Positions 5,424 to 62,981 of a stretch of DNA of 64,000 bases are shown one piece after another (within the stretch, counting starts at the first letter, position 1; each line of letters begins with the position of its first letter). Position numbers and translations under genes: made by a program. The notes below the pieces were generated by a model that made no database searches, was not told where the DNA came from, and saw nothing but the letters and a program-made list of their open reading frames with translations. Source of the DNA: Bacillota bacterium (lineage in GTDB: Bacteria; Bacillota; Sulfobacillia; Fermentithermobacillales; Fermentithermobacillaceae); assembly GCA_040766745.1 (NCBI GenBank), contig JAXGPX010000001.1, positions 432,065 to 496,064 on the forward strand. Reading direction: 5' to 3'.

Positions 5424-5429
5424 CGGAAT

Positions 5430-5443: not shown

Positions 5444-5445
5444 CT

Positions 5446-6078: not shown

Positions 6079-6084
6079 ATCCTC

Positions 6085-7329: not shown

Positions 7330-7368
7330 CGCACCACCCCCGAAATGTACAGGAGTTTACACTCTCCC

Positions 7369-9661: not shown

Positions 9662-10564
9662 CTAGCGGACGAGAAACTCTCCTATTCCCCTGGCAAGCCC
9701 TTTTGCAACCGAATCCTGAAACCAATTTTGCTTCAAGAGATTTACATCATTCCAGTTTGTCATGAACCCTACTTCAATTAGCGCAGCTGGCATGTAAGTG
9801 TGGTTGAGGACATAGTATGGGCCCATTTGAACATCGATGAACCTAAGGCCTGCAGCTGATGATACTCCGTTTGCCAGGGACTGTGCTAGCTTTTGGGATT
9901 CCCATGACCCATTCCTGTAAAAGCCCATGACACCTGATACTCCAGGGTCCCTGGGGTACGCATTGATATGTATGCTCACGAAAAGATCGGCGTCACGTGA
10001 GTTGGCTATGGAGACTCTTGCGAGCAGGTCGTCTGCAGGCGGAGACCAGTCACTGCCAGGTGAGTAGTCTCCGTACCTTGTCATTATCACAGCTGCGCCT
10101 TGCGACTCAAGGTAGTATCGTACTTTGGCCGCTATTGCCAGTGTGAAGGCCTTTTCTTTGTCCCCCCAATAGGATATGGCACCTGGCTCAGCTCCTCCGT
10201 GGCCTGGATCTATGACGATTACTCTCCCTTTCAGGGGGCCTGTCCCTCGAGACACATTGTTTGCCCTTTCAAGGGCAGTCCAGGTCAGCGGGCCAACTAT
10301 TCCGTCAGGAACCAGGCCTGAACTTCTTTGAAACGCAATTACTGCAGACTGGGTCTTTGGGCCGAAATCACCATCGACATAACCTGGGCTGAATCCTGCG
10401 TTTTGAAGATACTTCTGTAAAGTGGTTACGTTGTCTCCGTAGCTTCCCTTACGAAGGAGAGGAGCCGCGTAACCTCGAATAGGAACAATGAGACTTGCCA
10501 GCAGAAGTATGGCGGCAGCCGCAAGTATTGAGGTGGCAACCTTGTTGTGTGTAGATTTTGGCAT
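9662..10564 (-). CDS. N-acetylmuramoyl-L-alanine amidase with N-terminal peptidoglycan-binding domain
   Basis: Signal/TM segment, a PG_binding_1-like repeat (DGDFGPKTQSAVIAFQRSSGLVPDGIVGPLTW), then an Amidase_3 core (VIDPGHGG...SIHINA...EVGFMTN). Confidence 0.85.
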   Translation of the reverse strand: MPKSTHNKVATSILAAAAILLLASLIVPIRGYAAPLLRKGSYGDNVTTLQKYLQNAGFSPGYVDGDFGPKTQSAVIAFQRSSGLVPDGIVGPLTWTALERANNVSRGTGPLKGRVIVIDPGHGGAEPGAISYWGDKEKAFTLAIAAKVRYYLESQGAAVIMTRYGDYSPGSDWSPPADDLLARVSIANSRDADLFVSIHINAYPRDPGVSGVMGFYRNGSWESQKLAQSLANGVSSAAGLRFIDVQMGPYYVLNHTYMPAALIEVGFMTNWNDVNLLKQNWFQDSVAKGLARGIGEFLVR

Positions 10565-10681
10565 TAATGGTGACCTCCTGCTTCCTTGACATAACGTGGT
10601 TGTGTTTAGATACTACCTGATAAGGGACGGTTTATCACCAGGAAAAATATGGGGTGAGTTGGCCGAAGGGAGACTTGGCAG

Positions 10682-12973
10682 ATGGTGACAAGGAACGTAG
10701 AAGACGTACTGACTGATTTGCGACAGGATCCCAGGTTTTTGAGCTGCATTACTGCCTGGCATCATTTCCCTGCTACGGTTGGGGAATATCTTAATATTCC
10801 AGAGCAACTGCATCCTTCTTTGAAACAGGCATTGGAGAAGAAATCAGTACAGGCTCTATACTCTCACCAAAGAGAAGCCTACGACCGTGTCTGCAACGGC
10901 GAAGACATATGTGTTGTAACCCCGACAGCGTCAGGAAAAACCATGTGCTACAATTTGCCTGTGCTTGATGCTATCTTGAAGGATGACTCAGTAAGGGCAC
11001 TGTACATATTCCCCACAAAAGCCCTTGCCCAAGATCAATTGGCCGAAGTTGACGAGATGTGCAAACTTGGCAAGTTTGCAGTGAAGAGTTTTACTTTTGA
11101 CGGCGACACGCCAACCCAGAAAAGGCGGCTTGCGAAAGAAGTAGGGCAAATTATCATCACTAACCCGGACATGCTTCACCAGGCTATACTTCCCCACCAC
11201 CCTACCTGGGTAAGGCTTTTTGCGTCACTGAAATACATAGTCATTGATGAAATGCATAACTACAGGGGCGTATTTGGCAGCCACGTAGCTAATGTCCTGC
11301 GGCGCCTCAAACGGATTTGTAGGTTCTACGGTACATCGCCTCAGTTCATTCTGGCTTCTGCCACAATTGCAAATCCGGGTGAACTGGCCTCAGAACTTAC
11401 AGGGAGATCTGTTGCTGTGATCAGCAAGAACGGTGCACCGGCTACTGAAAAGGACTTCGTTTTCTATAACCCCCCTATCCTGAGTTCAGACGGCTCAATC
11501 AGGCAATCATCTGTAGACGCAGCAGCAAGGATTTCTTCCAGGTTTGTGAAAAACCAGATTCAGACGCTGGTTTTCGCAAGATCTAGAAAGTCTTGCGAAT
11601 TACTGGTTCAGTATCTTAGAGACTCATACAACAAGGAGTTTGAAAAGGACAAGATTCAGGGCTACCGTGGAGGCTACTTGCCCAATGAACGCAGAGCCAT
11701 TGAGAAGGGCCTTCGTAACGGGGACATATTAGGTGTAGCAGCTACTAATGCTCTGGAACTTGGAATCGATATAGGCAGGCTTGACGTAGTCGTAATGGCC
11801 GGTTATCCCGGAAACATAGCCAGTACCTGGCAGCAGGCAGGCAGAGCCGGCAGAAGGCAAGGAAAGTCGGCAGCGGTCCTGGTTGCAGGAGGGTCGCCTT
11901 TGGACCAGTTCATTATAAACAATCCTGATTACTTCTTTGAACAGAGCCCAGAGTATGCCCTGATAAACCCGAACAACCCGTATATCATTGGCCAGCACGT
12001 AAAATGTGCCGCTTACGAGCTTCCGTTCAGTGACAACCAAGATTCGCCTCCTGAGCTTGGAGGCGTCCAAATTGAGCATATCCTTGAACACCTGGCCGAT
12101 CAGAAGATCCTTCACAAAGGGCTGTCCAGATGGAACTGGTCATCAGACTCTTTTCCTGCAGCAGGAATAAGCTTGCGCTCGGCAACAAATGAAAACTTCG
12201 TCATAATAGATACTACCCATGGTACCCAGGTTATCGGTGAAGTTGATTGGGCTTCGGCTCCTATGCTAGTACACGACCAGGCTATATATATGCATAAAGG
12301 CCAGCAATACCACGTGATTAAGCTGGATTACCCGGCCAGAAAGGCTTACGTCAAAAAGGTTGATGTGGACTATTACACTGATGCCAATCTGGCTGTCGGA
12401 GTTAAGGTCATATCTATTGACAAGAGTCTTTCTAACATGTCTATAATGCCCAAGTTTGGCGAACTCTCAGTAACAGCCCTTGCCACAATCTATAAGAAGA
12501 TTAAGTTATATACCAATGAGAATGTCGGTTCCGGCGAGATTAGCCTTCCTGAGATGAATTTACATACTCAGGGGATGTGGTTCAGTATCCCTGACAGCCT
12601 TGCCGGCGGGATCGATCCCCATTCTGTTGGAGGTATACTATCCGGGATCGCAAATGTGCTCTTGAACATAGCCCCCCTCTTTCTGATGAGTGACAAGAGA
12701 GACCTGGGAGTGGCAGTAGAAGTTCGTTCGGCATACGACGGAAAACCTACTGTATACCTGTATGATTCCTATCCGGGAGGCATCGGCCTGGCCGAGAAGG
12801 CATTTCAGGTTATCTCCCATATACTGAAAGCGTCACTTGAGCTAATTTCATCTTGCCCATGCCTGGCAGGATGCCCTGGATGTGTTGGCCCTGAAGAGGA
12901 AGTAGGTACAGGTATTAAGGATTTGTGTATTCGGGTTCTTAAGGCTCTATGTGAAGAGGTGCAAGTTGACTAA
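10682..12973 (+). CDS. mrfA: DEAD/DEAH-box helicase with C-terminal DUF1998 zinc module (YprA/MrfA-like)
   Basis: Walker A TPTASGKT, DExH-like VIDEMHNYRG, motif VI QQAGRAGRR, and a C-terminal 4-Cys cluster CPCLAGCPGC. It is followed by a YprB-like exonuclease gene, as in B. subtilis yprA-yprB. Confidence 0.85.
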   Translation: MVTRNVEDVLTDLRQDPRFLSCITAWHHFPATVGEYLNIPEQLHPSLKQALEKKSVQALYSHQREAYDRVCNGEDICVVTPTASGKTMCYNLPVLDAILKDDSVRALYIFPTKALAQDQLAEVDEMCKLGKFAVKSFTFDGDTPTQKRRLAKEVGQIIITNPDMLHQAILPHHPTWVRLFASLKYIVIDEMHNYRGVFGSHVANVLRRLKRICRFYGTSPQFILASATIANPGELASELTGRSVAVISKNGAPATEKDFVFYNPPILSSDGSIRQSSVDAAARISSRFVKNQIQTLVFARSRKSCELLVQYLRDSYNKEFEKDKIQGYRGGYLPNERRAIEKGLRNGDILGVAATNALELGIDIGRLDVVVMAGYPGNIASTWQQAGRAGRRQGKSAAVLVAGGSPLDQFIINNPDYFFEQSPEYALINPNNPYIIGQHVKCAAYELPFSDNQDSPPELGGVQIEHILEHLADQKILHKGLSRWNWSSDSFPAAGISLRSATNENFVIIDTTHGTQVIGEVDWASAPMLVHDQAIYMHKGQQYHVIKLDYPARKAYVKKVDVDYYTDANLAVGVKVISIDKSLSNMSIMPKFGELSVTALATIYKKIKLYTNENVGSGEISLPEMNLHTQGMWFSIPDSLAGGIDPHSVGGILSGIANVLLNIAPLFLMSDKRDLGVAVEVRSAYDGKPTVYLYDSYPGGIGLAEKAFQVISHILKASLELISSCPCLAGCPGCVGPEEEVGTGIKDLCIRVLKALCEEVQVD

Positions 12974-14288
12974 CAGGGATATTGTAGAGAAACTCAGAAG
13001 CCTCATTAAGGAGATTCAAACAAGGGATCAGGCTCTAACCCAGGATGGCCCCCTTCTGTCTGCCCGAGATAGTTTGTCACCAGGCGGTAATTTTGCTGAA
13101 CCTTCTTCTGTTCAGTCAGAGTTCAGTAACCGGCAGTCAGCTGCCAGGGATATGTACCCTGCAAAGAAGGCGGAAGTAATCCGGAAGGACGGGTTCTCGA
13201 TATTGAGCACGTCTTATGGAGCAGGCTCTCTTCCCTGGTTCTATGAGCCGCCTTTAGATTCAGTATTACTTTTGGCAGGGGAAGAACGCCTGGCGAACAG
13301 CTCTGGCCTTACTAATCCCGGCCAGATGCTTTTCCTTGACCTTGAGACTACCGGCCTTTCAGGTGCCGGTACTGTTGCATTTCTAGCCGGTTTGGGCAGG
13401 TGGGAAAAAGGCGAGTTTGAGGTACGCCAGTTCTTCTTGAACGAGCGAGATTGTGAAGCAGTGATGCTTGAGGCAATCGCTGAGGAGATCAAAGACTCTC
13501 TGGTTCTTGTTACGTTCAATGGAAAAGCCTTCGATGTACCGGTAATCAGAAGCAGATTCATTATTAGTGGGCTCATTAAGGACTTCAATGAGTTTTCCTG
13601 CCACATCGACCTCTTCTCCTTAATCCGCAAGCTCGGAAGGCATCCTGTCTACGGCTTAAGCCTAAAAGAGTCTGTAAAGCGCTTTATCGGTGTGAGTCGC
13701 ATGAATGACATTCCGGGGCACATGATTCCTGCCCTATACTTCATATATGAGCAAGATAAGGATGTATCGGTCCTTGACCAGGTTTTTGAACACAATCGAA
13801 TGGATATCTTGGACATGGTTGGCCTTTTAAGAGTACTGGGCCAGGTGTTTTCAGGGCAGTATAGGCCGTACGGAGACCCGTCTGCTTTGTCCGGAGTCGG
13901 GAGATTTCACCTTAACCGCGGAGATCTGGATCTTGCCAGGCAATGCCTTGGTACGTCACTGGGCTGGCTTGGAGAAGCATCAGGTTCCAATGAGAAGAGG
14001 TCTCGGGATATGCGCCTTTTAGCAACGGTAATGAGAAAGCAAGGCGATTGGGATGCTGCTGCCGGCATTTGGAACGACTTGATAGGCGAGGGCGGCGTTG
14101 TACCCTATGATTACTTGTGGCTTGCAAGATACTACGAAATCTGTCACAAAGATGTGGCCAAGGCACTTGGCCTTGTCAAGGAATGTATTGCGCTGCTCCA
14201 GGAAAGACAATACCCTATTCCTGACGCCTTACTGTCAAGAAGCCGGCGTCTTGAGAAAATCGTTTCCAAGAAATCTGCTTCTGGTTGA
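12951..14288 (+). CDS. mrfB: RNase H-fold DEDD exonuclease with C-terminal TPR-like region (YprB/MrfB-like)
   Basis: Exo motifs LFLDLETTGLS, FNGKAFDVP and HNRMDILD. It overlaps the 3' end of the helicase gene. The start is either GTG 12951 or TTG 12966. Confidence 0.72.
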   Translation: MKRCKLTNRDIVEKLRSLIKEIQTRDQALTQDGPLLSARDSLSPGGNFAEPSSVQSEFSNRQSAARDMYPAKKAEVIRKDGFSILSTSYGAGSLPWFYEPPLDSVLLLAGEERLANSSGLTNPGQMLFLDLETTGLSGAGTVAFLAGLGRWEKGEFEVRQFFLNERDCEAVMLEAIAEEIKDSLVLVTFNGKAFDVPVIRSRFIISGLIKDFNEFSCHIDLFSLIRKLGRHPVYGLSLKESVKRFIGVSRMNDIPGHMIPALYFIYEQDKDVSVLDQVFEHNRMDILDMVGLLRVLGQVFSGQYRPYGDPSALSGVGRFHLNRGDLDLARQCLGTSLGWLGEASGSNEKRSRDMRLLATVMRKQGDWDAAAGIWNDLIGEGGVVPYDYLWLARYYEICHKDVAKALGLVKECIALLQERQYPIPDALLSRSRRLEKIVSKKSASG

Positions 14289-45990: not shown

Positions 45991-48900
45991 TCAGAACAGG
46001 GCCAACTGGGCAGTTTCTGACAACCCATCGAAGAGCCCGTGTTCCCTCATTGCCTCACATACTTTCTTTCCAAGGCCTGTCCTTCTTCTGAAATCTTCAA
46101 CAGAGTCGAACTGGCCGTCGTCTCTTGCCCTGACAATAGCCATAGCAGCCTGGTTTCCCAGGCCCGGAATCGAGGTAAACGGCGGAATGAGTTCTGAGCC
46201 TTCCGGTATGTATCTCGTGGGTTGTGACACATAAAGGTCATGTTTTCCGAATGAGAAGCCTCTTTCCACCATTTCCAGGGCCAGTTCAAGGGCTCCGGCA
46301 ACATCTTGTTCTCTGGCCGTTGAATTGGGGTTTCCATTGACTTTTTGTATGTACTCTTGCCAATCTCTAGGGTCAAGATACATAAAGTCTGTGGTCAGAG
46401 AAGCGCCTGCAAATGAAAAATATGTTGAATAGTAAGCCAGAGGGTGATGGACCTTAAAGTATGCTATTCTGAACGAGTTTGTCACGTACGCTGCGGCATG
46501 GGCCTTTGGGAAAAGGTAACTGATCTTCTTACATGATTCAATATACCAGTCAGGCACTGATACTGCTTTCATTTTGTCTATGTCATCACCTGAAAGCGGT
46601 TTGCCCTTTCTTACTTTCTCGGCTATTCCGAAAGCCGATGCCGGCTCTACACCAAGCTTCATCAAGTGCAAAAATATATCTTCGCGAGAGGCTATCACTT
46701 GATCGAGAGTGGCAACCTTGTCTCTGATCAGATCCCGGGCGTTATTAGCCCACACATCGGTTCCGTGGGAAAGCCCTGAAATCCTGACCAGGTCGGCAAA
46801 GCATTTTGGCTTTGTTTCAGACAGCATGTTCCGGACAAACCTGGTCCCGAATTCGGGAATTCCAATAACTTTATCTTGGTCGTCGCCTGAAAACAGTTTG
46901 AGGGTGTCCGGGTCGTTCATAGGTATTTTCGTTGGATCGACGCCTGTCAGCTCATGAAGGATCTTGAGCACAGTGGGATCGTCGTGGCCTAGAATATCGA
47001 CTTTGACCAGGTGCCCGGAGATGGAATTGTAGTCAAAGTGGGTGGTTATAGACCCTGAGTTCCGGTCGTCCGCAGGGTACTGCAGGGGTGTGAAATCAAG
47101 AACATCCATGCCCTTTGGTATAACCATGACTCCCCCTGGGTGCTGGCCGGTTGTACGTTTTACTCCCTCGATTCCCTTTGACAGCCTTACTTCTTCAGCT
47201 CGCCTAAATACTTTGCCTTTGCTTTCGGCATAGTGTTTCACAAAACCGAATGCTGTTTTCCTTGCAATTGTCCCAATAGTTCCAGCCCTGAACACATTTT
47301 TGTCGCCTAGCAGTTCAGAAGCAAATTTGAACATCTCACCTTGCTCTTCCCCTGAAAAGTTCAGGTCGATGTCAGGTACTTTTTCTCCTGTAAACCCCAT
47401 AAAAGTTTCAAATGGTATGTCCTGGCCGTCCCTTACAAGTTCCTCGCCACATTCAGGGCATTTCATAGAGGGCAAATCAAATCCCGATCCACATGATCCA
47501 TCTTGGATGAATGTATTCCAGTGGCATTTCGGGCACACATAATGTGGCGGCAGAGGATTGACTTCTGTGATCCCGGTAAACATGGCCACCAACGATGAAC
47601 CTACAGAGCCACGGGACCCTACAAGATATCCGTCTCTCATAGATTTTTTAACCATTTTTATGGCGATAAGGTACAGAGAAGAAAATCCGTTTCCTATGAT
47701 GGCAGACAGTTCCTTATCTATGCGCTTTCGGACAATATCGGGCAGATTCTTGCCAAATACTTGTTTTGCTCCTGCCTCAGTTAGTTCTTTCAAGATTTCA
47801 TCAGAGTTCTCTAAAATCGGATAGAAGAAACCTTCTGGAATTGGAGTCACGTTTTCTATTGAATTAGCTATGGCCTGAGGATTGGTGATTACCACTTCCC
47901 TGGCCGCTTCTTTGCCCAAATATGATTCAACTTCTGATAGGAATTCACCGGTTGTTCTCAGATACAGAGGTACTGGCCTTTCGCCGTTTTCGCCCATGCC
48001 TTTACCTGAAAGGAGCAAGGTTCTGTATATCTCGTCTTCCGGGTCCACGTAGTGGACGTCGCCTGTGGCTACGCAGGGTTTGCCTAGTTTCTTGCTCAGA
48101 TCGTAGATTCTGCGGTTGATCTTGATTAGGCCTTCTTCACCTGAGACAGCTCCTGTCTCTATAAGGAATGAGTTATTGGTCAGAGGTTGAATTTCAAGGT
48201 AATCGTAAAAAGCGGCGATCTTCTCCAACTCCTGATCGGCCTTTCCAGACAAAACCGCTCTATATAGCTCGCCTGCTTCGCAAGCCGACCCAATGATTAA
48301 GCCCTCTCTCCTATCGGATAGAATCTGCCTTGGTATCCTAGGAGTTCTGTAAAAATGTTTAAGATGGGATATAGTCACCAGTTCATATAGGTTTCTAAGG
48401 CCTTGTTTGTTCTTTGCCAGCAAAATAATGTGGAATGCTTGTCCCTTTTCATCATCTTCGACCAGGTAGCCTTCTAACCCGAACAGTATTTTGATGCCAT
48501 ACTTTTTCCCCAGGTGGAATGCTTCAGGAAAAGCTTGTATTATCCCGTGGTCTGTAACTGCCATCGCCTGGTGCCCCCACCGTGCAGCAGTCGCTACAGC
48601 CTTATCTAGTTCCAGGACTGAGTCTAGGGCACTCATCTTTGTGTGCAGATGGAGTTCAACACGCTTTTCCGGAGATGGATCTTGCCTCAACTCAGGAACG
48701 GTTGCGCAAAGATCATTACACATGAGTACAGGTTCAGAGTCCAGACGGTCAAGCCTGGCCCGACCCCTAGCCAGTACCCAGGTACCTTCTTTGATTTCGT
48801 CTATTTTTCCTTCCTTTGGGAAGATTCTTACATTGATTGAATCGGAGTTGTCTGCTAGTACAAAGGACCCGTAAATATCGCCTGACTGGGCCTGTCTCCA

Positions 48901-49380
48901 TGATATTTCAACTACCTGGCCCATTACAGTTATGCTGTCCCTTTCGCCTCCTGTTACGTCGCTTATAGGCACAGGGTCAGTGCGTATTGCCCTGCCAAGG
49001 AACACTCCATCTTCTGACGGACTAGTATTCCTTGATTTACTGTCATGGGATTTTGGGGCCTCTTCTGCGAAGCACTTTTGATAATCCTCACACAGCTCCC
49101 AGCATACCGTTTCAAGCTCAGGATACCTCTTCCTTAATTCCTGTCCTATACGAGTTAGGCACAGTTCAAATTCCTCTTTTGATAGATCAGACGCCACCTT
49201 TGCCCATTTCTTCTCATCAAGCACATCGAGAGATACAGACCAGGCAGAATCACCTGTATTGACCGCAATATATACTACTTCGAGATACTTCAGTACTTCA
49301 CTTGGCTGTAATTCCAAGGATTGAGCAATGTTAAGCAAACTAAGGTGCTCACGTGAAGGTGTTACTACAAAACGGCTCAA
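45991..49380 (-). CDS. polC: DNA polymerase III PolC-type alpha subunit, lacking the 3'-5' exonuclease insertion
   Basis: OB domain and PHP motifs (ELHLHTKMS, VTDHG, GLEGY, FHIILL, GDVHY). Zn-finger CPKCHW...CPECG, catalytic KVPDIDLNFSG, GQHPGG, GTRFVR, SHGTDVW and KAHAAAY are present, with a C-terminal HhH and LALF tail. Probable TTG start at 49380, where GGAGGGAG lies 4 nt upstream and the codon overlaps the ispG TGA. The ORF-track ATG is at 49398. No ETTG/DEDD motifs anywhere. About 1130 aa, against my recollection of about 1430 for canonical PolC. Confidence 0.9.
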   Translation of the reverse strand: MSRFVVTPSREHLSLLNIAQSLELQPSEVLKYLEVVYIAVNTGDSAWSVSLDVLDEKKWAKVASDLSKEEFELCLTRIGQELRKRYPELETVCWELCEDYQKCFAEEAPKSHDSKSRNTSPSEDGVFLGRAIRTDPVPISDVTGGERDSITVMGQVVEISWRQAQSGDIYGSFVLADNSDSINVRIFPKEGKIDEIKEGTWVLARGRARLDRLDSEPVLMCNDLCATVPELRQDPSPEKRVELHLHTKMSALDSVLELDKAVATAARWGHQAMAVTDHGIIQAFPEAFHLGKKYGIKILFGLEGYLVEDDEKGQAFHIILLAKNKQGLRNLYELVTISHLKHFYRTPRIPRQILSDRREGLIIGSACEAGELYRAVLSGKADQELEKIAAFYDYLEIQPLTNNSFLIETGAVSGEEGLIKINRRIYDLSKKLGKPCVATGDVHYVDPEDEIYRTLLLSGKGMGENGERPVPLYLRTTGEFLSEVESYLGKEAAREVVITNPQAIANSIENVTPIPEGFFYPILENSDEILKELTEAGAKQVFGKNLPDIVRKRIDKELSAIIGNGFSSLYLIAIKMVKKSMRDGYLVGSRGSVGSSLVAMFTGITEVNPLPPHYVCPKCHWNTFIQDGSCGSGFDLPSMKCPECGEELVRDGQDIPFETFMGFTGEKVPDIDLNFSGEEQGEMFKFASELLGDKNVFRAGTIGTIARKTAFGFVKHYAESKGKVFRRAEEVRLSKGIEGVKRTTGQHPGGVMVIPKGMDVLDFTPLQYPADDRNSGSITTHFDYNSISGHLVKVDILGHDDPTVLKILHELTGVDPTKIPMNDPDTLKLFSGDDQDKVIGIPEFGTRFVRNMLSETKPKCFADLVRISGLSHGTDVWANNARDLIRDKVATLDQVIASREDIFLHLMKLGVEPASAFGIAEKVRKGKPLSGDDIDKMKAVSVPDWYIESCKKISYLFPKAHAAAYVTNSFRIAYFKVHHPLAYYSTYFSFAGASLTTDFMYLDPRDWQEYIQKVNGNPNSTAREQDVAGALELALEMVERGFSFGKHDLYVSQPTRYIPEGSELIPPFTSIPGLGNQAAMAIVRARDDGQFDSVEDFRRRTGLGKKVCEAMREHGLFDGLSETAQLALF

Positions 49381-50471
49381 TTTACTCCCTCCGGACATTC
49401 CACGTATCTTTTTGCAAGTTCTAGAAGGGCATCTACGATCTCATCAGTGGCTACCCTTCTAATTACTTTGCCCCGTGAGAACAAAATGCCTCCTCCCCGC
49501 CCGCAGGCAACTCCGATATCTGCTTCCCTTGCTTCACCAGGGCCATTAACCGGGCAGCCCATGACAGCCACTTTGATTGGAGCGTCTAGCCCTCGTAAGC
49601 TTTTGGAGACTTGCTCAGCAATTGGGATCAAGTCTACCTGGGTTCGTCCGCATGTAGGGCATGATATTATCTCTGGACCAAATGTCCTTGCTTCCATAGA
49701 TTGCAGAATATCTTTTGCAGCACTTACTTCCAGGCATGGATCGCCTGTCAGAGAGACTCTCACAGTATCTCCTATTCCAAGGGCGATCAAGGTACCGATA
49801 CCTGCAGCTGATCTTGCTATGCCTGAAGCTCCGGGGCCTGCTTCTGTGATTCCAATATGAAAGGGCCACCGGGTGTATTCAGCCATGAGTTTGTATGCTC
49901 GAACAGTATCTTTCACCCGCGACGATTTCAGCGACAGCACTATGCCTTGGATTCCGCTGTCTTCAAGATACGCCAGGTGTCTTCTGGCGCTTTCTACCAT
50001 GGCTTCAGGGCTCGGAGCACCGTAACGGGCGAGAATGTCTTTTTCAAGAGAGCCTGAGTTTACTCCCAGCCTTATTGAGGCCCCTAAGGACCTGGCTTTC
50101 CTGGCTACAGCCAGCAAAGGTTCCCTGCCGCCGATATTGCCTGGGTTAACTCTGACTTTGTGTGCGCCTGCTTCAAGAGACGCCAGCGCTAGTTTATAGT
50201 CGAAATGAATGTCTGCCACTATTGGGCAAGATACTCTTTTCGTAATTTCTGCAATAGCCTTGGCTGCATCATCATCAACTACGGCTACGCGAACGATTTC
50301 GGCGCCGCAGGCCACGGCTTTTCGTATCTGAGCTACAGTGGTATCAACATCTCTGGTATCGCACTTGGTCATTGTTTGAACTGAAATCGGGCCATTTCCA
50401 CCTATGGTAATATCTCCACACTTAACAGGCGCAGTTTCCCTCCGGTCAAACAAGTAAATAGAATTAGTCAT
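49377..50471 (-). CDS. ispG: 4-hydroxy-3-methylbut-2-en-1-yl diphosphate synthase
   Basis: TIM-barrel N-domain (VQTMT, RVAV) and C-terminal 4Fe-4S cysteines (ISCPTCGRT...GCPVNGPGE). The ATG at 50471 has AGGTGA 4 nt upstream. Confidence 0.93.
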   Translation of the reverse strand: MTNSIYLFDRRETAPVKCGDITIGGNGPISVQTMTKCDTRDVDTTVAQIRKAVACGAEIVRVAVVDDDAAKAIAEITKRVSCPIVADIHFDYKLALASLEAGAHKVRVNPGNIGGREPLLAVARKARSLGASIRLGVNSGSLEKDILARYGAPSPEAMVESARRHLAYLEDSGIQGIVLSLKSSRVKDTVRAYKLMAEYTRWPFHIGITEAGPGASGIARSAAGIGTLIALGIGDTVRVSLTGDPCLEVSAAKDILQSMEARTFGPEIISCPTCGRTQVDLIPIAEQVSKSLRGLDAPIKVAVMGCPVNGPGEAREADIGVACGRGGGILFSRGKVIRRVATDEIVDALLELAKRYVECPEGVN

Positions 50472-50541
50472 ATTATCACCTGTCAGCAAATATATAGGCG
50501 GCAAGTTGAGCACCGGTTAAGAGCCTCTCCCCCGGTAATGC

Positions 50542-51573
50542 CTATCCTATCAGACGTATAATGTCTTTATATGTGATTACAAGAAATAAGACCATCAACA
50601 AGAAGAACCCGACGAAGTGGACAAAACTTTCCTTGTCAGGGTCTATCGGTTTGCCTCTCAGGGCTTCAATTCCTGCAAATAAGAGCCTGCTGCCGTCAAG
50701 GGCTGGAATTGGCAGAAGATTTATAAGGCCAAGGTTTGCTGAAAGGGCGCCGACCATATAAAGGAGCTGGCCAAACCCGTGCCTTGCGGCCTCTCCCAGG
50801 AGCTGACTTATTCCTACTGGGCCAGTTACCTCTGGGGCGATTTTTCCCACAATCATGCCGATAATACCGGTTATCCATGCTGAGGATACGTAGAAAGTCT
50901 CGAGAAATCCTTCTTTTATGCCATGCAAGATACCTAAGCGTGTATATACTACGCCAGACCTAACCCCTATGACACCTGTTCCGGATACGTCTATAGGAAT
51001 CATTGTCACAGTAATCACTTCGTTTCCTCTTTGCACTGTGACTTTGGTGGGAATCCCAGCCCTGGTTTGAACAACCTGTACCATGTCCTGCCATTCGTTT
51101 ACAGGAATATCCTCGACCTGTACTACCCTGTCCCCTGCAAGTATTCCTGTGTCGTAAGCAGGATACCCTGGTACTACCTCTGCAATCTGTGTTGTTGGGC
51201 GGCCAAAACCGACAAAAGAAAATACCAGAAAGAAGGCTATGGTGGCCACCAAAAGGTTCATCAGAGGCCCGGCAAACAGAATTAAGGCTCTTTTGCCAGG
51301 AGATAGCGAGTACAGCAGCCGTTCTTTGGGAATATGCGTGTCCTCTTCTTTTTCACTGCCTTCTTCACCTGCGAAACGCACAAATCCTCCCAAAGGGATA
51401 ATGCGCCATGAAAACTTGGTCTCATCTGATTGCTTGGAAAATATCTTAGGGCCAAAACCAATGCTAAATTCGTGAATGTATACTCCCAGCAGTTTTCCTG
51501 CCACGAAATGCCCTAATTCGTGGAAAATGACCAAAACCCCTAACCATATAAGAGCTAATACTGTCTCGCGCAA
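50542..51573 (-). CDS. rseP: RIP site-2 zinc metalloprotease RseP/RasP
   Basis: HELGHF zinc motif, a single PDZ domain and NLLPIPALDG. Confidence 0.88.
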   Translation of the reverse strand: MRETVLALIWLGVLVIFHELGHFVAGKLLGVYIHEFSIGFGPKIFSKQSDETKFSWRIIPLGGFVRFAGEEGSEKEEDTHIPKERLLYSLSPGKRALILFAGPLMNLLVATIAFFLVFSFVGFGRPTTQIAEVVPGYPAYDTGILAGDRVVQVEDIPVNEWQDMVQVVQTRAGIPTKVTVQRGNEVITVTMIPIDVSGTGVIGVRSGVVYTRLGILHGIKEGFLETFYVSSAWITGIIGMIVGKIAPEVTGPVGISQLLGEAARHGFGQLLYMVGALSANLGLINLLPIPALDGSRLLFAGIEALRGKPIDPDKESFVHFVGFFLLMVLFLVITYKDIIRLIG

Positions 51574-51577
51574 AATG

Positions 51578-52786
51578 TCACCTTCCCATAATCATATGTA
51601 TGGTTTTCCTGGTCTCAGACTCTGCCCATAAGGCTTCTTGTTCAAGAATTTCAACAGAATCAGGGCTCTTTGGTTGATACCTATCCAAAACCGTTTTCAA
51701 TATTATATATATTTTCGTGAAAGGAACTCTCCCGGCCAGGAATTCTCGTACAACAATTTCATCGGCCATAGAAAGCACACATGGAGCCGTCCCGCCTATT
51801 CTTCCGGCTTCATACCCAAGTCCAAGGCATGGAAACCGCTCAAAGTCAGGTTCGTGAAAAGTGAGCGTCCCAAGGGCCGGCCCCAGGGGCAGCGTAACAC
51901 CGCCCTGCCTTTCAGGATAGTTCAGGGCGTACGCTATGGGAAGCCGCATGTCGGGCCTTCCCAGCTGGGCCATTGTACTTCCGTCTTTGAACGTAACCAG
52001 TGAATGCACAATACTTTCTCTGTGAATCGTTACCTTGATTTTATCGTACCCTATGCCAAACAGATAATGAGCCTCCATAACCTCCAAGGTCTTGTTGAAA
52101 AGAGTTGCAGAATCAACTGTGACTTTAGGGCCCATTTTCCATGTAGGATGCTTAAGGGCGTCATCAGGGCCTATTCTCTCCAATTCTGCCAGGCCTAGAT
52201 CCCTAAAAGCACCGCCTGAGGCTGTCAGAATAATGTGATCAATGTCAAGCCGGTTCTCTCCCCTTAGGCACTGGAAAATGGCAGAATGCTCAGAATCCAC
52301 CGGTATTATGGAATTGGGGCCTTGCTCTAGAAACGGCCTAATGAGCTCGCCTGCGGAAACCAGTGATTCTTTACCGGTTAAAGCCACTTGCTTGCCGCCA
52401 TGCAACGAAGCTAGAAGGGGCCTAATACCTTCGAAGCCTGGAATTGCATGAAGCACTGTATCAGCCTCAGGGAGTGAGGCTATCTGGCATAAACCTTCTT
52501 GTCCAAAGAATACTTCCAAGTTTTCAAGGCCCATGGCGTTCTTATTTCGATTAGCTTCACGGGCAGCGCTCTCATTGGACAGGGCAACTTTCCTTATACC
52601 CAGTATCTTTGCTTGTCTTAGCACCGTTCGCCAATTGGTGCCGGCCGCCAACCCAACAGCTTTGAGATTTGGATTACCCATGATAACATCTATTGCCTGT
52701 GAGCCCACGGATCCTGTTGATCCCAGAACAGAGACGGTTTTCAGCGTCCTGCACCACCTTCGTGAGGAATGACTTCTGCAGCCCAT
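51578..52786 (-). CDS. dxr: 1-deoxy-D-xylulose 5-phosphate reductoisomerase
   Basis: The NADPH motif LGSTGSVG comes early in the protein and the Dxr core follows. The start is ambiguous: ATG 52786 without an SD, or CTG 52744 with GAAGGTGG upstream. The ORF-track start at 53014 is an artefact of an open frame across the upstream gene. Confidence 0.9.
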   Translation of the reverse strand: MGCRSHSSRRWCRTLKTVSVLGSTGSVGSQAIDVIMGNPNLKAVGLAAGTNWRTVLRQAKILGIRKVALSNESAAREANRNKNAMGLENLEVFFGQEGLCQIASLPEADTVLHAIPGFEGIRPLLASLHGGKQVALTGKESLVSAGELIRPFLEQGPNSIIPVDSEHSAIFQCLRGENRLDIDHIILTASGGAFRDLGLAELERIGPDDALKHPTWKMGPKVTVDSATLFNKTLEVMEAHYLFGIGYDKIKVTIHRESIVHSLVTFKDGSTMAQLGRPDMRLPIAYALNYPERQGGVTLPLGPALGTLTFHEPDFERFPCLGLGYEAGRIGGTAPCVLSMADEIVVREFLAGRVPFTKIYIILKTVLDRYQPKSPDSVEILEQEALWAESETRKTIHMIMGR

Positions 52787-53778
52787 AGGCCCAAGATCAG
52801 TATGGCTGTAAGGGGCCCGTAGATTATGCCGATTGCCCCAAATAGTCGGAAGCCCAGGTATATTGAAAACAGGGTAACCAGCGGATGCAGCCCCATTTCT
52901 CTGCCTACAAGCTGAGTCTGGATTACTTGCCTGACAAACGATACGGCTGCATATAGAATCAGGAGCCCTATTCCGGTAGATAATTGGCCCCAGATTACAT
53001 GGTACAGTATCCATGGAAAATATATCAGGCCCGGGCCTATTACCGGAAGTATATCCAGTACTGCAAGCAAAATCCCCAGGCCTACTGCGTAGCGGGTATT
53101 CAGCAAGCTAAGGCCTACTATGTTGACCGTCATGGTCAAAAGCACCAATAGAACCTGAGATCTTACTACCGCAGCAATGCCCGACAAGATAGTGCTCTCT
53201 ACGTTTCTGAAACTCATAAAAGTCTTCTCTGGAAGAAGACGCCTGAATGCTTCTGATATGTTATTTCTGTCTTTGATTAGAAAATACGTGCTAATGATTG
53301 TGAAAACCATTGATACTGAAAATGCGGGAAGCCCTTTTACTACACCACCGGCACCTGTGACTACTGCAGACAGCAGGCTGTACAGGCTGTTCCATTGATC
53401 CTGGGCAAGCCTGGCCAGAGGTTCAGGGAGTTTCTGCGAGAACTCGCCTGCAAATCTGAGGACATCTCCAAGTATCTTGTTGAACTCTCCGTAATACTGT
53501 GGGAAGTATCCGTAGAGATCGGCGATTTCCTGCGTAAGCCTGGTTACGCCCCAGGAAAGAATAAGTCCAAGCCCAACCGCCAATAGCATGATAGATGTGA
53601 AAGCCGCCCATCCCCTGCCCATCCTTGTACGTTTAGTCAAGAATGATACCAACGGGTCAAGAAGGAATGCCAGAAAAGCACCTAAGACAAAAGGAAGGAC
53701 ATAAGGCATTGCATATTTCAGGAACAGGAATATGCCGATTAAGAGAAATACTATATACCACACACTTTTCCAGGTCAC
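52741..53778 (-). CDS. AI-2E/UPF0118 family membrane transporter (YtvI-like sporulation integral membrane protein)
   Basis: About 8 TM helices with PerM/YtvI-like topology. GGAGGG is followed by TTG (53781) and GTG (53778) start candidates, just after the cdsA stop. Confidence 0.72.
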   Translation of the reverse strand: MTWKSVWYIVFLLIGIFLFLKYAMPYVLPFVLGAFLAFLLDPLVSFLTKRTRMGRGWAAFTSIMLLAVGLGLILSWGVTRLTQEIADLYGYFPQYYGEFNKILGDVLRFAGEFSQKLPEPLARLAQDQWNSLYSLLSAVVTGAGGVVKGLPAFSVSMVFTIISTYFLIKDRNNISEAFRRLLPEKTFMSFRNVESTILSGIAAVVRSQVLLVLLTMTVNIVGLSLLNTRYAVGLGILLAVLDILPVIGPGLIYFPWILYHVIWGQLSTGIGLLILYAAVSFVRQVIQTQLVGREMGLHPLVTLFSIYLGFRLFGAIGIIYGPLTAILILGLWAAEVIPHEGGAGR

Positions 53779-53794
53779 CAAGCACCCTCCTGTT

Positions 53795-54577
53795 CTAGAA
53801 ATCGAAAAGCAATTTAGATAGCCCTTGGAGCAAAACACCTGCTACGCCAGCAAACAGAAGACTGTCGAACCTATCCAGGAATCCACCATGGCCTGGGATG
53901 GCTCTTCCTGAGTCTTTTACTTTGCAGTATCGTTTGAAGGCAGATTCTACAAGATCCCCAATGCCAGCCATTACTCCAATAAACATCCCTGAGAAAATAC
54001 TGAAATACAGAGGTAACCCCATGTACCGGCCCCACAGCGCACTAATAATCATGCCGGAACCCATGCCGAATGCAGCTCCTTCCCAGGACTTGCCAGGGCT
54101 GATCTTAGGAGCGATTTTATGCCTCCCAAACGCCCTCCCTCCAAAGTATGCTCCTACATCGGTGGCCCATGTAGTGAACAAGACCAGAAAAGCCCATTCC
54201 CTGCCGCCAGGGCCGGACCTGAGAAAACCTAGAACGCCAAAAAGCCCGCCTATGTAAACAGCACCTGCAACACTGAATGCAGCCGGTGGCATTCCTCTTT
54301 TCAATGACACTGATAACAATACAAGACACCCAATGATGATTGATGAAAGGAAAAGGTCTACCCGGTTAAAAGACCCACTTAGGGCGATTACAGTGGACAC
54401 AGGCACAAATAGAAACCCCAGATCAAACCCTGTACCTTTGAGCATTCTCCGGAATTCTTCTGCGGAACAGCCGGCCAGCACAGTTGTCAGAGCCAAAAAA
54501 CCAATACCGCCTGTGTAAAAGGCTAAAGCGGCCAGGGGAGCCAGCACCAAGGCAGAAAGGACCCTTTCCTTTAGCAC
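53795..54577 (-). CDS. cdsA: Phosphatidate cytidylyltransferase
   Basis: Polytopic protein with the C-terminal CTP-transferase signature SAFKRYCKVKDSGRAIPGHGGFLDRFDS. Confidence 0.9.
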   Translation of the reverse strand: MLKERVLSALVLAPLAALAFYTGGIGFLALTTVLAGCSAEEFRRMLKGTGFDLGFLFVPVSTVIALSGSFNRVDLFLSSIIIGCLVLLSVSLKRGMPPAAFSVAGAVYIGGLFGVLGFLRSGPGGREWAFLVLFTTWATDVGAYFGGRAFGRHKIAPKISPGKSWEGAAFGMGSGMIISALWGRYMGLPLYFSIFSGMFIGVMAGIGDLVESAFKRYCKVKDSGRAIPGHGGFLDRFDSLLFAGVAGVLLQGLSKLLFDF

Positions 54578-58100: not shown

Positions 58101-58418
58101 CTATGCTCCGTGTATATCCAGGATTTTTCCTTTTGTGGGATGGGGAGATGTTTTCTCTCTCTTGTTTCTGCCGTGTTTGTGTTTTCCGGTTAAAGAACCT
58201 TCTGTGGCTGAGCCCTGGCTGTCTTGTGTATCAGTATCTACCGTTGTTTCGGCAACCTCAGAACTTTCTGAAACGATCTTGGTTTTTTCAGCAATTTCCC
58301 TTGAAAAGGCCAGTGACTGTACCTGAGTCTGCATGTCGCCCTGTCTGGCGGCAGTGTCGGCCAGTTTTGCTATGTCTGGGGACTTGGGAAGCCCGGCTAC
58401 AGCGTCAATCGGTCTCAT
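58101..58418 (-). CDS. Hypothetical small protein (105 aa) at the end of the flagellar/sigD block
   Basis: The ATG at 58418 has GGAGTGAGG 4 nt upstream and overlaps the last 14 nt of the DUF342 gene. The middle of the protein is acidic and the tail is strongly basic (KHKHGRNKREK). No family recognised. Confidence 0.5.
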   Translation of the reverse strand: MRPIDAVAGLPKSPDIAKLADTAARQGDMQTQVQSLAFSREIAEKTKIVSESSEVAETTVDTDTQDSQGSATEGSLTGKHKHGRNKREKTSPHPTKGKILDIHGA

Positions 58419-59778
58419 TGTGCCTCACTCCGACTTCAACCTTATGTTCCGGGCAGGAGAATTCAACTGTATCAAGCCCTGCTGCCACAGTAGTGCCTGG
58501 CAGCACCAGTTTAGCACGGAAATACCCTTGCCCGGATTTCTTAATGGAATTCTCCAACGATGCCAGTCTTGCATAGAGCTCCTTTTCTCTATCTTCGAAG
58601 AGTACGCCCATTCTTTGAAGGCGAAGATTATCGAGTTCAAGTTGATCTTGTTTCGCTCTCCGGCTGATGCCGGTGCGCTTGATCCTGCTTATTTCGGCTC
58701 TTAGTGCAGATATCTCCTTCTTGAGCCTTGCCAACTCTCTGCGTATTTTAGGGCTGGCACCTACTTCAACTACAGTTGAAATGCCCATGGTTGAACCGGC
58801 GGAATAGGCTGATACGCCAATCCCGGCCCTGATTAGCCCCCCTACTATGCGGCCTCTATCTTTACTGAGTTTCAGTTCTCGCTCGGTTTCCACAACGCTG
58901 TGCATAATCGATTCAGCAATAGCAACGTCACCATAAGCACGAACTACAGAGTTTTCACAGAACCTGGCAGATACCGATCCACCGGACTCTACAATCTCCC
59001 CAGGGGCATTTATCCCCCCCTCAACAGCAATACTTCCCGCACACGACGCTGAACCAGACAAGTTGCCTGTTACAATCAAAGATCCCCATGATGAAACCTG
59101 GAATCCCTGAAGTACATCGCCTTTTACCGTGAGGTTTCCAGGAAAGGCAATGTTGCCTGTTTCAGGGCCTATGTTCCCTATAACCTCAAAGCGGCCCATT
59201 ATTCCGGGTATCTGGTTGTCGACATATGGAACACCTGACGTAGACGCTATTATGTATTTACCATCCCTTGAAGGCGAAGAATTCGGGCCGCACCTAAGAA
59301 ACGGCTTTTGAGCAAAGTAAGGGATTTTCTCTCCTGTGACAGTCAACCCGAGACTGCACTTATCAAGATTTCTGACAAAGGCTAGAACTCCTCCTACCCT
59401 TACTGCTCCACGGGCCAAAATCTTATTCCACTCGTCTCTGAAGTTCGGGCCTACTCTCAGTGAGTTAGGAGGCTTGCCCTGGGATTGGCCGAACTTCAAG
59501 ACTATCCTTGGTGGGATCGTACCTTTGCCCGGCTGTTCGTCATGGGGTGGAAGCCCCCAGGCTACTTTATACGGAGTACCCTCATTGCTCAGGAGGCATG
59601 CACGAATTGCAGCGTCAGAAATTCCGAAAACCACACCATGGTTCCTAAGCGCCTCTTTAACGCCGGTAAGGGACCAACAATTAATGTCTTCAAGGGTTAT
59701 CCAGGCAGACATCTTATCCTCAGAGATAGTCACTTGTATGCGTTTTTCGATGCACATTTCCGAGTCCTCCGTCTTCAA
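58405..59778 (-). CDS. DUF342 / FapA-family (flagellar assembly protein A-like) protein
   Basis: A beta-helix-like repeat region (GNIAFPGNLTVKGDV..., GSIAVEGGINAPG...) is followed by a C-terminal coiled coil. Its position directly after fliA is common for FapA-like genes. Confidence 0.78.
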   Translation of the reverse strand: MKTEDSEMCIEKRIQVTISEDKMSAWITLEDINCWSLTGVKEALRNHGVVFGISDAAIRACLLSNEGTPYKVAWGLPPHDEQPGKGTIPPRIVLKFGQSQGKPPNSLRVGPNFRDEWNKILARGAVRVGGVLAFVRNLDKCSLGLTVTGEKIPYFAQKPFLRCGPNSSPSRDGKYIIASTSGVPYVDNQIPGIMGRFEVIGNIGPETGNIAFPGNLTVKGDVLQGFQVSSWGSLIVTGNLSGSASCAGSIAVEGGINAPGEIVESGGSVSARFCENSVVRAYGDVAIAESIMHSVVETERELKLSKDRGRIVGGLIRAGIGVSAYSAGSTMGISTVVEVGASPKIRRELARLKKEISALRAEISRIKRTGISRRAKQDQLELDNLRLQRMGVLFEDREKELYARLASLENSIKKSGQGYFRAKLVLPGTTVAAGLDTVEFSCPEHKVEVGVRHNETD

Positions 59779-60553: not shown

Positions 60554-60943
60554 CTATTTGACTTCACCGTGATGTCTCTCCAATCCATCGGTTAGAACAA
60601 CCTGAGCTATTCTATCTCTGTCTTTTGTGGCAACTGACACAAACATAACCGCGGCCTGTGCCTTGCCATTACCCTTGGTAAGCAGTCTGACTACCTCTCC
60701 AATACCAAATACCGGCCCCCCGGGAATGACCAGTTCAAACTCAATCAAGTCGCCTGGCCCGAGTCCTTGAACGTCCATTGGTACCGCGGCCCCGCCTGCT
60801 GAAAGGTTCAGGGTCGACGAATATTGCCAGTCACCCTCTTGATGCCCTGCGGCCCCCTGGGGAATTTTCCTGTACCAAAAAGGATAGTTAGCCTCTGCAC
60901 GGAAATTGAATCGTTTTTGAGCGAAATCACCTTGCTTATTCAC
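60554..60943 (-). CDS. PilZ-domain c-di-GMP receptor (flagellar brake-type context)
   Basis: An RxxxR motif (RFNFR) and a D/NxSxxG motif (NLSAGG). Located between flhA and fliA. Confidence 0.78.
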   Translation of the reverse strand: MNKQGDFAQKRFNFRAEANYPFWYRKIPQGAAGHQEGDWQYSSTLNLSAGGAAVPMDVQGLGPGDLIEFELVIPGGPVFGIGEVVRLLTKGNGKAQAAVMFVSVATKDRDRIAQVVLTDGLERHHGEVK

Positions 60944-62981
60944 TGCTTATCACCCTGACTGCTTCAATATTGGCTCTGTCGTCCAGTTCCTCATATGCAA
61001 CAACCGATATGTCCGGAACTACCCTTGATGCAATTTCGTATACCTGGCTTCGGCACGCTGCCGATGTAAGAAGCACAGGCCTTGGAGCCCGCCTTACCAC
61101 TTCGTTCATACCTGCCTGAATCGACTGCATGATTAGGGAAAGCCTTTCAGAGGAAAGGGCAACATAGGGGCCTCGGTCGCCTCTCCGGGTAGCTTCCAAT
61201 ATTTCATGTTCCAGAGCCGGATCCAGTGTAGCTACAGGAAACGGCCCTTTATCAAGGCCGATTTTTGTGGTAATCAATCTGGCGAGGCTTTCTCGTACCC
61301 GCATTGTCAGATAGTCTGAGTCTTTGGATATTCTTGCGGCATCAGCAATACTTTCTATGATTGTTACCAGGTCCCTGACTGGCACCCCTTCTCTCAGAAG
61401 GTTCTGAAGGACTTTTTGAACGTCTCCAAGTGAGACAAGGTTAGGGATCGTCTCGTCAACACATGAGGCGTCTTCGGCCTTAACAAGGTCTATTAACCGC
61501 TGAGTCTCTTGTCTGGTCAGAAGCAAGTAGGCGTTTTTTCTAAGCACCTCGGTAAGGTGGGTGGCCATTACTGCTGAAGACTCAATGACTGTATAGCCTG
61601 AGGTTTCAGCTTTTTCCCTTTCGGCCTTGGGAATCCACACTACGTCAAGGCCGAATGCCGGTTCTTTACCCGGAATACCCTGTAGTTTGCTGCCGGAAGG
61701 AGCCCCTTCGATGGCCATGAGTCGATCAGGGTACACTTCACCTGTACCGATTTCCACACCTCTAAGGTTTATGCAGTAAGCATTAGGAGCCAACCCTGCA
61801 AAGTTATCCCTGACCCGTACTACAGGTATCAGTATGCCCAATTCAGACGCAAGCTGCCTTCTGACCATAACGATTCTGTCAATAAGGTCGCCTCCTTGAG
61901 AAGGATCGGCTACCGGCAGCAAAGCGAGTCCAAATTCGATTTCAAGCGGATCTACTTTAATTAGGCTCGATGCTGCCTCAGGGCTCTTTTGCTCCTCAAG
62001 CTCTTTTCTGTAGGCTTCTTCCCTTTCTACAGTCTCCTGAGAAACTTTGGATCGAAGAACGGACCTGCCAAGAAACAGCCAGGTTGCCCCCAGTGAAATA
62101 AGTGAGAACTTGGGTAGGCCTGGCACCAGGCTTAGTATGATAAGGGCCCATCCTGTCATTGAAAGCACTTTAGGGGACGATGTAATCTGGCTCACAACGT
62201 CGCTACTTAGGTTTTCTCTCGAAGCGCTCCTTGTTACAATGATGCCTGTAGCACTGGATATTACTAGCGCAGGAAGCTGGCTGACCAATCCGTCGCCTAC
62301 AGTTAGCAAGGCATACCTGTGCCATGCCTCTGCCGCAGGCAAACCATGTTGCAGCATACCCACGCCAAAACCGCCAAGGAGGTTTACCGCCGTTATGACA
62401 AGGCCGGCAATGGCATCTCCTTTTACGAACTTAGACGCACCGTCCATGGCTCCGTAGAAGTCGGCCTCCTGTTCAATTGCCCTCCGGCGTTTCCGTGCAT
62501 CATCTTCTGTGATCAGCCCTGAGTTTAAATCTGCGTCAATGGACATTTGTTTTCCCGGCATGGCATCAAGGGTAAACCGGGCTGCCACTTCTGCAACCCT
62601 CTCGGCTCCTTTTGTGATGACTACAAACTGAATGATTACGAGTATGAGGAAAATGACCAGGCCTACTACCTCATTCCCGCCTACGACAAACTGGCCGAAA
62701 GCTTGAATGATACGCCCTGCCTCGTACCGCAAGAGGATAAGCCTGGTTGAAGATACATTAAGGGCTAATCGGAATAATGTCATGATGAGTAACAGCGATG
62801 GGAATACAGAGAATTCCAAAGGTTCCCTTGTGTACATTGTCAATAGCAAAATGGCTATGGCTATGCTGAAATTGGCGGCTATTAGAATGTCAAGCAAGAA
62901 CGGAGGAAGCGGTACCACCATCATGGCCACTATTAGAACCACCAATATTGATACGATACTGTCTTTTCCCTTACTCAACAT
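60936..62981 (-). CDS. flhA: Flagellar type III export protein FlhA
   Basis: 681 aa with an N-terminal 8-TM domain, the FHIPEP signature region (GAMDGASKFVKGDAIAG) and a C-terminal cytoplasmic domain. Confidence 0.96.
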   Translation of the reverse strand: MLSKGKDSIVSILVVLIVAMMVVPLPPFLLDILIAANFSIAIAILLLTMYTREPLEFSVFPSLLLIMTLFRLALNVSSTRLILLRYEAGRIIQAFGQFVVGGNEVVGLVIFLILVIIQFVVITKGAERVAEVAARFTLDAMPGKQMSIDADLNSGLITEDDARKRRRAIEQEADFYGAMDGASKFVKGDAIAGLVITAVNLLGGFGVGMLQHGLPAAEAWHRYALLTVGDGLVSQLPALVISSATGIIVTRSASRENLSSDVVSQITSSPKVLSMTGWALIILSLVPGLPKFSLISLGATWLFLGRSVLRSKVSQETVEREEAYRKELEEQKSPEAASSLIKVDPLEIEFGLALLPVADPSQGGDLIDRIVMVRRQLASELGILIPVVRVRDNFAGLAPNAYCINLRGVEIGTGEVYPDRLMAIEGAPSGSKLQGIPGKEPAFGLDVVWIPKAEREKAETSGYTVIESSAVMATHLTEVLRKNAYLLLTRQETQRLIDLVKAEDASCVDETIPNLVSLGDVQKVLQNLLREGVPVRDLVTIIESIADAARISKDSDYLTMRVRESLARLITTKIGLDKGPFPVATLDPALEHEILEATRRGDRGPYVALSSERLSLIMQSIQAGMNEVVRRAPRPVLLTSAACRSQVYEIASRVVPDISVVAYEELDDRANIEAVRVISSE

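Follow-up and report, generated by a model that had tools for sequence, protein, structure and literature searches.

The window analysed here, a 64,000-nucleotide (64-kb) stretch of contig JAXGPX010000001.1 from an uncultured Bacillota bacterium, carries on its minus strand a polC gene for a PolC-type DNA polymerase III devoid of the DnaQ-like (DEDDh) exonuclease domain (exo; the enzyme is hence referred to as exo-less). The longest open reading frame (ORF) of this gene (45991..49398) is uninterrupted, in agreement with an earlier first-pass annotation of the sequence, encodes 1135 amino acids (aa) and opens at an ATG (49398) that falls within ispG. The true start is probably the TTG at 49380, as judged from its sequence context: a GGAGG Shine-Dalgarno motif is located 8-12 nt 5' of this codon, the N-termini of PolC homologs ('MS.v.V') begin to align at residue 7, and the identical database protein (P0001) comprises 1129 aa. 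Since the TTG shares bases with the TGA stop codon of ispG (TTGA), the overlap together with the GGAGG motif suggests that translation of the two genes is coupled. Residue numbers given below refer to the 1135-aa ORF, and subtraction of 6 yields the numbering of the probable 1129-aa product. The gene and its domains are arranged as follows:

45991..49380, minus strand: polC, exo-less PolC-type DNA polymerase III (TTG start, 1129 aa; matched by PolC equivalog models)
49078..49380, minus strand: N-terminal domain (NTD), residues 7-107, probably PolC NTD subdomain I (hhalign)
48934..49077, minus strand: linker, residues 108-155, partly disordered and ending in a conserved segment preceding the OB fold (predicted local distance difference test, pLDDT; alignment with 9QPC)
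48703..48933, minus strand: OB fold, residues 156-232 (Pfam PF01336 at 156-217; beta strands of the model at 156-232)
48019..48663, minus strand: PHP domain, approximately residues 246-460, uninterrupted, with a nine-ligand site (Pfam; aligns with the PHP domains of Taq and Mycobacterium tuberculosis DnaE1)
48436..48459, minus strand: junction loop EDDEKGQA, residues 314-321 (alignment gap, model and reading of the DNA)
46597..47796, minus strand: polymerase core (palm, thumb, fingers), residues 535-934 (Pfam DNA_pol3_alpha at 535-804, finger at 809-934)
47449..47535, minus strand: four-cysteine zinc finger, C622, C625, C647 and C650 (invariant alignment columns)
46015..46230, minus strand: tandem helix-hairpin-helix (HhH), residues 1057-1128 (Pfam HHH_6)
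45994..46008, minus strand: C-terminal beta-clamp-binding motif QLALF, residues 1131-1135 (column conservation)

Assignment to PolC is based on two NCBIfam equivalog models, NF001688 (1348.5 bits, cut-off 873) and TIGR01405 (1249.4 bits, cut-off 1043.45); the equivalog match is split in two, with the second piece pairing residues 318-1135 with profile positions 611-1444. The order of Pfam domains (OB, PHP, DNA_pol3_alpha, finger, HHH_6) is that of PolC-type polymerases, in which the OB fold precedes PHP. The catalytic residues D676, D678 and D801 are invariant across 249 PolCs, the zinc-finger cysteines are kept in 125/125 exo-less PolCs examined, and Q1131, L1134 and F1135 of the clamp motif are at least 90 % conserved, QL[SAT]LF being its commonest form across PolCs. 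Since polymerase triad, zinc finger, HhH and clamp tail are all intact, the enzyme should still be able to function as a replicase tethered to the clamp.

Absence of the exo domain and direct fusion of the two PHP halves, both claimed in the first-pass annotation, can be regarded as virtually certain, and the same degree of certainty applies to the authenticity of this architecture. The Pfam scan proposed there yields matches to PHP and DNA_pol3_alpha, and none to RNase_T (PF00929) even at E<=1; PHP is matched as one stretch at residues 248-403 (profile positions 1-161 of 164). Relative to the full-length PolC 9QPC, residues 102-316 correspond to 206-432 and residues 317-1135 to 635-1471. Likewise, MAFFT alignment with five exo-containing PolCs opens a 200-column gap (199-200 residues) between D316 and E317, which sets the boundaries of the deletion. 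The string 'ETTG' occurs nowhere in the protein, and a custom hidden Markov model (HMM) built from 15 PolC exo domains has no match at E<=10 among all six-frame ORFs of the window. At the junction, positions 48436-48468 (minus strand) code for Y311-A321 (YLVEDDEKGQA), within which the 8-residue loop EDDEKGQA joins the PHP halves. In the AlphaFold2 model (64 homologs; mean pLDDT 89.2) this loop is flanked by strands 303-313 and 322-328 (pLDDT of the block 85), and the best Foldseek match of the model is 3F2B (target-normalised template-modelling (TM) score 0.93, root-mean-square deviation 2.9 A). Presence of a divergent or hidden exonuclease elsewhere in the protein is ruled out by the Pfam scan at E<=1, the custom HMM and the lack of any extra domain in the model. 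In evolutionary terms, the DEDDh exonuclease of about 200 aa would have been lost from the PHP loop of an orthologous replicative PolC, with the 8-residue hairpin loop now closing the PHP barrel.

An artefactual origin of the missing domain, i.e., assembly collapse, a pseudogene or a paralogous copy, has to be considered, in particular as another lineage has a paralogous polC of the exo-less type (P0243, arranged in tandem with an exo-containing copy), yet it is highly improbable for the gene studied here. The same type of junction is present in 41 orthologs of the query's clade (57-82 % identical) from independent assemblies (NCBI, JGI, ENA, Logan), among them a complete genome; all of the orthologs have an 11-12-residue spacer between the positions of E309 and H323, none matches PF00929, and individual polC clusters recur on many contigs. 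The locus was compared by scanning one genome per species, yielding eight loci with exo-less polC (L001-L008) and two with exo-containing polC (L009, L010). The former include the complete genome of Candidatus Fermentithermobacillus carboniphilus (CP062796.1; 70 % identity) and a metagenome-assembled genome (MAG) of Ca. Fermentithermobacillaceae. In 8/8 of these loci dxr-rseP-ispG lie directly upstream of polC, as they do in the window, and the same dxr-rseP-ispG-polC locus is occupied by the exo-containing genes of L009 and L010 (Clostridiales). The respective genes of the window are:

49377-50513, minus strand: ispG (above NCBIfam equivalog cut-off)
50542-51573, minus strand: rseP (above NCBIfam equivalog cut-off)
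51578 to ~52747, minus strand: dxr (above NCBIfam equivalog cut-off; the listed ORF runs on to 53014)
52741-53838, minus strand: gene for an AI-2E family transporter, between cdsA and dxr

With dxr, rseP and ispG all passing their equivalog cut-offs, the canonical replicase locus postulated in the first-pass annotation holds. The ratio of nonsynonymous to synonymous divergence (dN/dS) of polC is 0.07 in comparison with the 89 % identical ortholog of L007; for orthologs further away, synonymous divergence has reached saturation, and the proportion of nonsynonymous differences (pN) is 0.20-0.25. No second C-family polymerase is encoded in the window or in the 10-kb polC flanks of L001-L008. The gene is thus an ortholog under purifying selection, and the survey of relatives suggested earlier reveals the exo-less form to be conserved across the lineage (41 clade sequences as well as L001-L008). 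Assembly collapse is ruled out by the junction common to 41 independently assembled orthologs, and a decaying paralog by the canonical locus, the dN/dS of 0.07, the continuous frame and the invariant functional residues; cross-assembly junction, synteny and selection together exclude both for practical purposes. In L007 (AnMBR.bin277), the genome closest to the window, polC is split into two overlapping ORFs at 9980-13404, and ispG and rseP are also broken up, which probably reflects assembly indel errors rather than pseudogenisation.

The region preceding the OB fold, noted as shortened already in the first-pass annotation, comprises 155 residues as compared to 224-273 in 14/15 exo-containing PolCs aligned. 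Comparison of the clade's N-termini with long PolC N-termini by hhalign matches positions 4-99 to 2-86 of 235 (probability 95.6 %), the remainder being unmatched, and residues 102-150 align with 206-256 of 9QPC. Neither Pfam NI nor NII is matched in the window PolC at E<=1. The model has a pLDDT of ~86-93 over residues 7-107 and of <50 at 113-129, the latter predicting disorder. On the basis of these comparisons, the query's clade appears to have kept NTD subdomain I and to be without subdomain II (~100 aa). The lacking exo insert of 200 aa and the ~100 aa of the NTD together account for the difference in length from the canonical PolC of ~1440 aa. Regions of ~140-170 aa before the OB fold are found across the whole Fermentithermobacillaceae-related clade (P0002-P0042); other exo-less clades (1220-1243 aa) retain the full NTD.

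Exo-less PolCs have been known since 2014, when Timinskas et al. (NAR 2014; PMC3919608) reported 6 % of PolCs to be without the Exo insert and called these natural variants 'surprising'. They amount to 16 % of the PolCs in systems combining PolC and DnaE1, were all found in genomes with both polymerases, and were limited to Clostridia and Negativicutes, plus one extra copy in Thermotogae (PMC3919608). The typical architecture with DEDDh inserted in PHP accounts for 86 % of PolCs, and proteins without the insert are still accepted as members of the PolC group. Exo-less PolCs are widespread among related anaerobes. Of the public homologs, 105 of the 120 closest are exo-less, as are ~33 among the best 150 cluster representatives (50 % identity); holders include the cultured Zhaonella formicivorans (WP_227766605.1), a Thermoclostridium MAG and MAGs of Syntrophothermus, Peptococcaceae, Zhaonellaceae and Limnochordales. 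The novelty implied in the first-pass annotation does therefore not extend to the architecture; it stands with respect to biochemistry, since our literature search retrieved no paper in which a natural PolC of this type is characterised biochemically. Kinetic and structural work was performed with engineered deletions (PMC3656037).

The distribution of the exo domain among PolCs provisionally points to its repeated decay and deletion. Some exo-less PolCs have cores that are 71 % identical to an exo-containing PolC and share no more than 58 % identity with the query's clade, and Fitch parsimony on a neighbour-joining tree of 249 PolCs yields 19 changes of exo state; these trees are distance-based and the underlying sample is biased towards the query. 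The junction spacers corresponding to E309-to-H323 vary between clades from 10 to 30 residues. Furthermore, about 10 representatives have, at the exo site, an insert of 137-286 aa that scores <25 bits with the PolC-exo HMM:

P0132, P0134, P0139, P0140, P0155, P0168, P0185, P0219, P0223 and P0250: PolCs with decayed insert, PHP nonad intact in all ten

Pfam RNase_T is not matched in the inserts of the seven checked (P0132-P0219), and where the inserts can be aligned, the catalytic D-x-E is replaced (e.g., 'FVSIHIGTTGD' versus canonical 'FVVFDLETTG'). In terms of sequence, these inserts without catalytic residues look like decayed DEDDh domains. The polyphyly, the 19 changes, the varied spacers and the decayed inserts underlie the provisional view of repeated loss; polyphyly, changes and decayed inserts also disfavour an exo-less ancestral state of PolC, albeit not decisively.

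In PolC-using bacteria, replication fidelity is usually attributed to the DEDDh exonuclease fused to the polymerase. When PolC naturally lacks this domain, the question arises of what proofreads, as already recognised in 2014 by Timinskas et al. (PMC3919608). The PHP domain of the window PolC contains nine metal ligands (H250, H252, D259, H284, E309, H323, C373, D447, H449), all of which had been correctly named in the first-pass annotation. Together they read HHDHEHCDH, conforming to the pattern HHDHEH[C/H]DH by which a 2026 survey defines an 'active' PHP (PMC12926913). The eighth ligand is N in the PolCs of Geobacillus and 9QPC (ATGNVHY) versus D in the window PolC (ATGDVHY). According to Banos-Mateos et al., it is this substitution that leaves the G. 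kaustophilus PolC without PHP exonuclease activity, and the DEDD exonuclease of PolC is situated in a loop adjoining the PHP active site (PMC5636811). With the nine ligands present, the PHP domain itself is most likely the 3'-5' proofreader; it would proofread in cis by means of a trinuclear metal centre, as in the case of M. tuberculosis DnaE1 and Thermus Pol III alpha.

For a comparative test, 132 full-length representatives of 50%-identity clusters were classified by the state of exo and PHP. The PHP site is intact in 55/99 representatives with a recognisable exo insert (disrupted in the other 44/99), in 10/10 with a 137-286-aa insert failing the exo models, and in 22/23 without an insert. 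Not corrected for phylogeny, the Fisher test yields p = 1.9e-4 for no insert versus exo insert and p = 3.5e-6 once the proteins with decayed insert join the exo-less ones. The sole exo-less PolC seen with a dead PHP site (HRSLENSDQ) is P0243 (1178 aa). Its gene (8001-11537 in L011) lies directly downstream of, and in tandem with, an exo-containing polC (3702-7904, 1400 aa), and P0243 is accordingly an extra copy. Both genes are located among resolvase and Cas12f1-like TNB genes. From this distribution, an intact PHP site would seem to be almost a prerequisite for tolerating the loss of DEDDh. The comparative pattern thus fits with a catalytically active PHP domain doing the proofreading, a conclusion that we infer with a slight preference only. 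As to whether the PHP domain is the sole cis proofreader in this and other exo-less PolC lineages, with the DnaQ insert lost or decayed repeatedly and essentially where PHP is intact, the odds appear evenly balanced.

Several points weigh against proofreading by the PHP domain. An intact site is also kept by the exo-containing clostridial PolCs (15/15), so that intactness represents the background of this group and not a specific compensation, and the Fisher test takes no account of phylogeny. Moreover, an intact set of ligands is necessary for activity, not sufficient. The PHP-adjacent loop lines the primer-entry groove in M. tuberculosis DnaE1, where it comprises 29 residues, compared to 18 in Taq and 9 in E. 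coli (PMC5636811); in the window PolC it has just 8 residues and is acidic. PHP exonuclease activity has been demonstrated for M. tuberculosis DnaE1 and Thermus Pol III alpha, and we found no report of it in the literature for any PolC. Finally, the negative results for dnaQ, dnaE1 and a second polC cover the 64-kb window and the 10-kb flanks of relatives.

PHP proofreading and a trans-acting DnaQ, the two mechanisms offered in the first-pass annotation, are both reasonable. In the latter case a separately encoded DnaQ/epsilon-like exonuclease would act in trans, as in the split alpha-epsilon form of E. coli. Stand-alone DnaQ homologs average >3 per proteome (PMC12926913), a putative surface for binding epsilon is conserved in those DnaE1s that occur together with PolC (PMC3919608), and the DNA inspected represents 64 kb of the genome. 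However, neither the window nor the 10-kb polC flanks of L001-L008 contain a DnaQ-like ORF matching the PolC-exo HMM, and the exo-less state tracks with an intact PHP site. The only DnaQ-fold gene of the window (12951-14288) fits a repair nuclease. To our knowledge, no PolC-epsilon complex has been described, which also counts against proofreading in trans, and this explanation is considered unlikely. The repair-type gene belongs to a pair at 10682-14288 (plus strand), in which the gene for an MrfA-like helicase (763 aa; DEAD, Helicase_C and MrfA Zn-binding domains) overlaps that for a 445-aa protein with RNase_H_2 (PF13482) and TPR domains. By its domain content the pair looks like mrfAB; no NCBIfam model matches the 445-aa nuclease. 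Due to its pairing with the MrfA-like helicase, the MrfB-like RNase_H_2 gene was set aside as a candidate for a polC-associated dnaQ.

It is likewise doubtful, and about to the same extent, that PolC lacks proofreading of its own and is not the main high-fidelity replicase, its role being reduced and a DnaE1 carrying an active PHP performing bulk synthesis or proofreading in trans. This possibility was raised by Timinskas et al. for organisms with PolC and DnaE1, the exclusive occurrence of exo-less PolCs in such genomes is in line with it, and some Clostridia have DnaE1 alone (PMC3919608); the extra loss of NTD subdomain II could also mean a simplified role. Against it stand the strong purifying selection on polC (dN/dS 0.07) and the retention of catalytic residues, zinc finger, clamp residues and canonical locus. 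In addition, the nine PHP ligands are invariant in >100 exo-less PolCs, which would be unexpected were the site unused. Taken as a whole, a functional orthologous PolC which has lost its exo domain and in which the PHP domain would proofread in cis provides the best explanation and is regarded as reasonably probable. If the PHP domain is moreover the sole cis proofreader in this and the other exo-less lineages, proofreading in PolC would be interchangeable between two unrelated nucleases, and natural exo-less PolCs would offer a direct system for showing PHP proofreading in PolC.

The window PolC shares with the exo-less PolCs of Timinskas et al. the absence of the PHP-inserted Exo, the conserved PHP metal site and the clamp motif. 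It differs from them in that its closest named relatives belong to the NCBI class Candidatus Fermentithermobacillia, outside both reported classes, thereby modestly extending the reported host range, and in that its clade also appears to be without NTD subdomain II. Near-identical in domain content are the engineered PolC delta-N delta-Exo of Geobacillus kaustophilus (3F2B/3F2C) and PolC-delta-N-delta-Exo of S. aureus (PMC3656037). The former (3F2B) is also the best PDB sequence match, over residues 151-1135, which together with the TM score of 0.93 bears out the resemblance to delta-exo PolC predicted in the first-pass annotation. These constructs are, however, laboratory deletions with an artificial linker, and their eighth PHP ligand is N, with the site reported to be inactive (PMC5636811); in contrast, the window PolC is natural and keeps an N-terminal domain as well as all nine ligands.

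Among DnaE-type polymerases, M. tuberculosis DnaE1 (5LEW; PMC5636811) and Thermus Pol III alpha (2HPI) resemble the window PolC in their uninterrupted PHP domain, the HHDHEH[C/H]DH trinuclear site and the lack of a fused DEDDh. They differ by a C-terminal OB fold, absence of the PolC zinc finger, a longer PHP-adjacent loop (see above) and an identity of only ~20-22 %. Canonical PolC (B. subtilis type, 9QPC) is orthologous and has the same type of locus, core, zinc finger, HhH and clamp motif, but contains the ~200-aa DEDDh in PHP and a two-subdomain NTD, and the PHP site of such enzymes is often incomplete (44/99).

The window PolC is a further example of a published architecture and leaves the current picture of replisome diversity unchanged. 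New are the occurrence of a clean and strongly conserved case in a class-level lineage other than Clostridia and Negativicutes, the apparent extra loss of N-terminal subdomain II, and comparative evidence that nearly all PolCs with a lost or decayed exo have an intact PHP site. This pattern sharpens PHP proofreading in PolC into a directly testable hypothesis, for which the compact enzyme of 1129 aa from a probably thermophile-related lineage represents a convenient candidate.

Further upstream of polC, the listed dxr ORF (478 aa) is too long, since Dxr models match from residue ~91 onwards, placing the true start near 52747. Beyond the gene for the AI-2E family transporter, the cluster continues upstream with cdsA-uppS-frr-pyrH-tsf-rpsB. 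Just upstream of rpsB-tsf-pyrH-frr, flagellar genes are located on the minus strand at 58405-59778 (FapA-like) and 60936-62981 (FlhA/FHIPEP), suggesting a motile organism.

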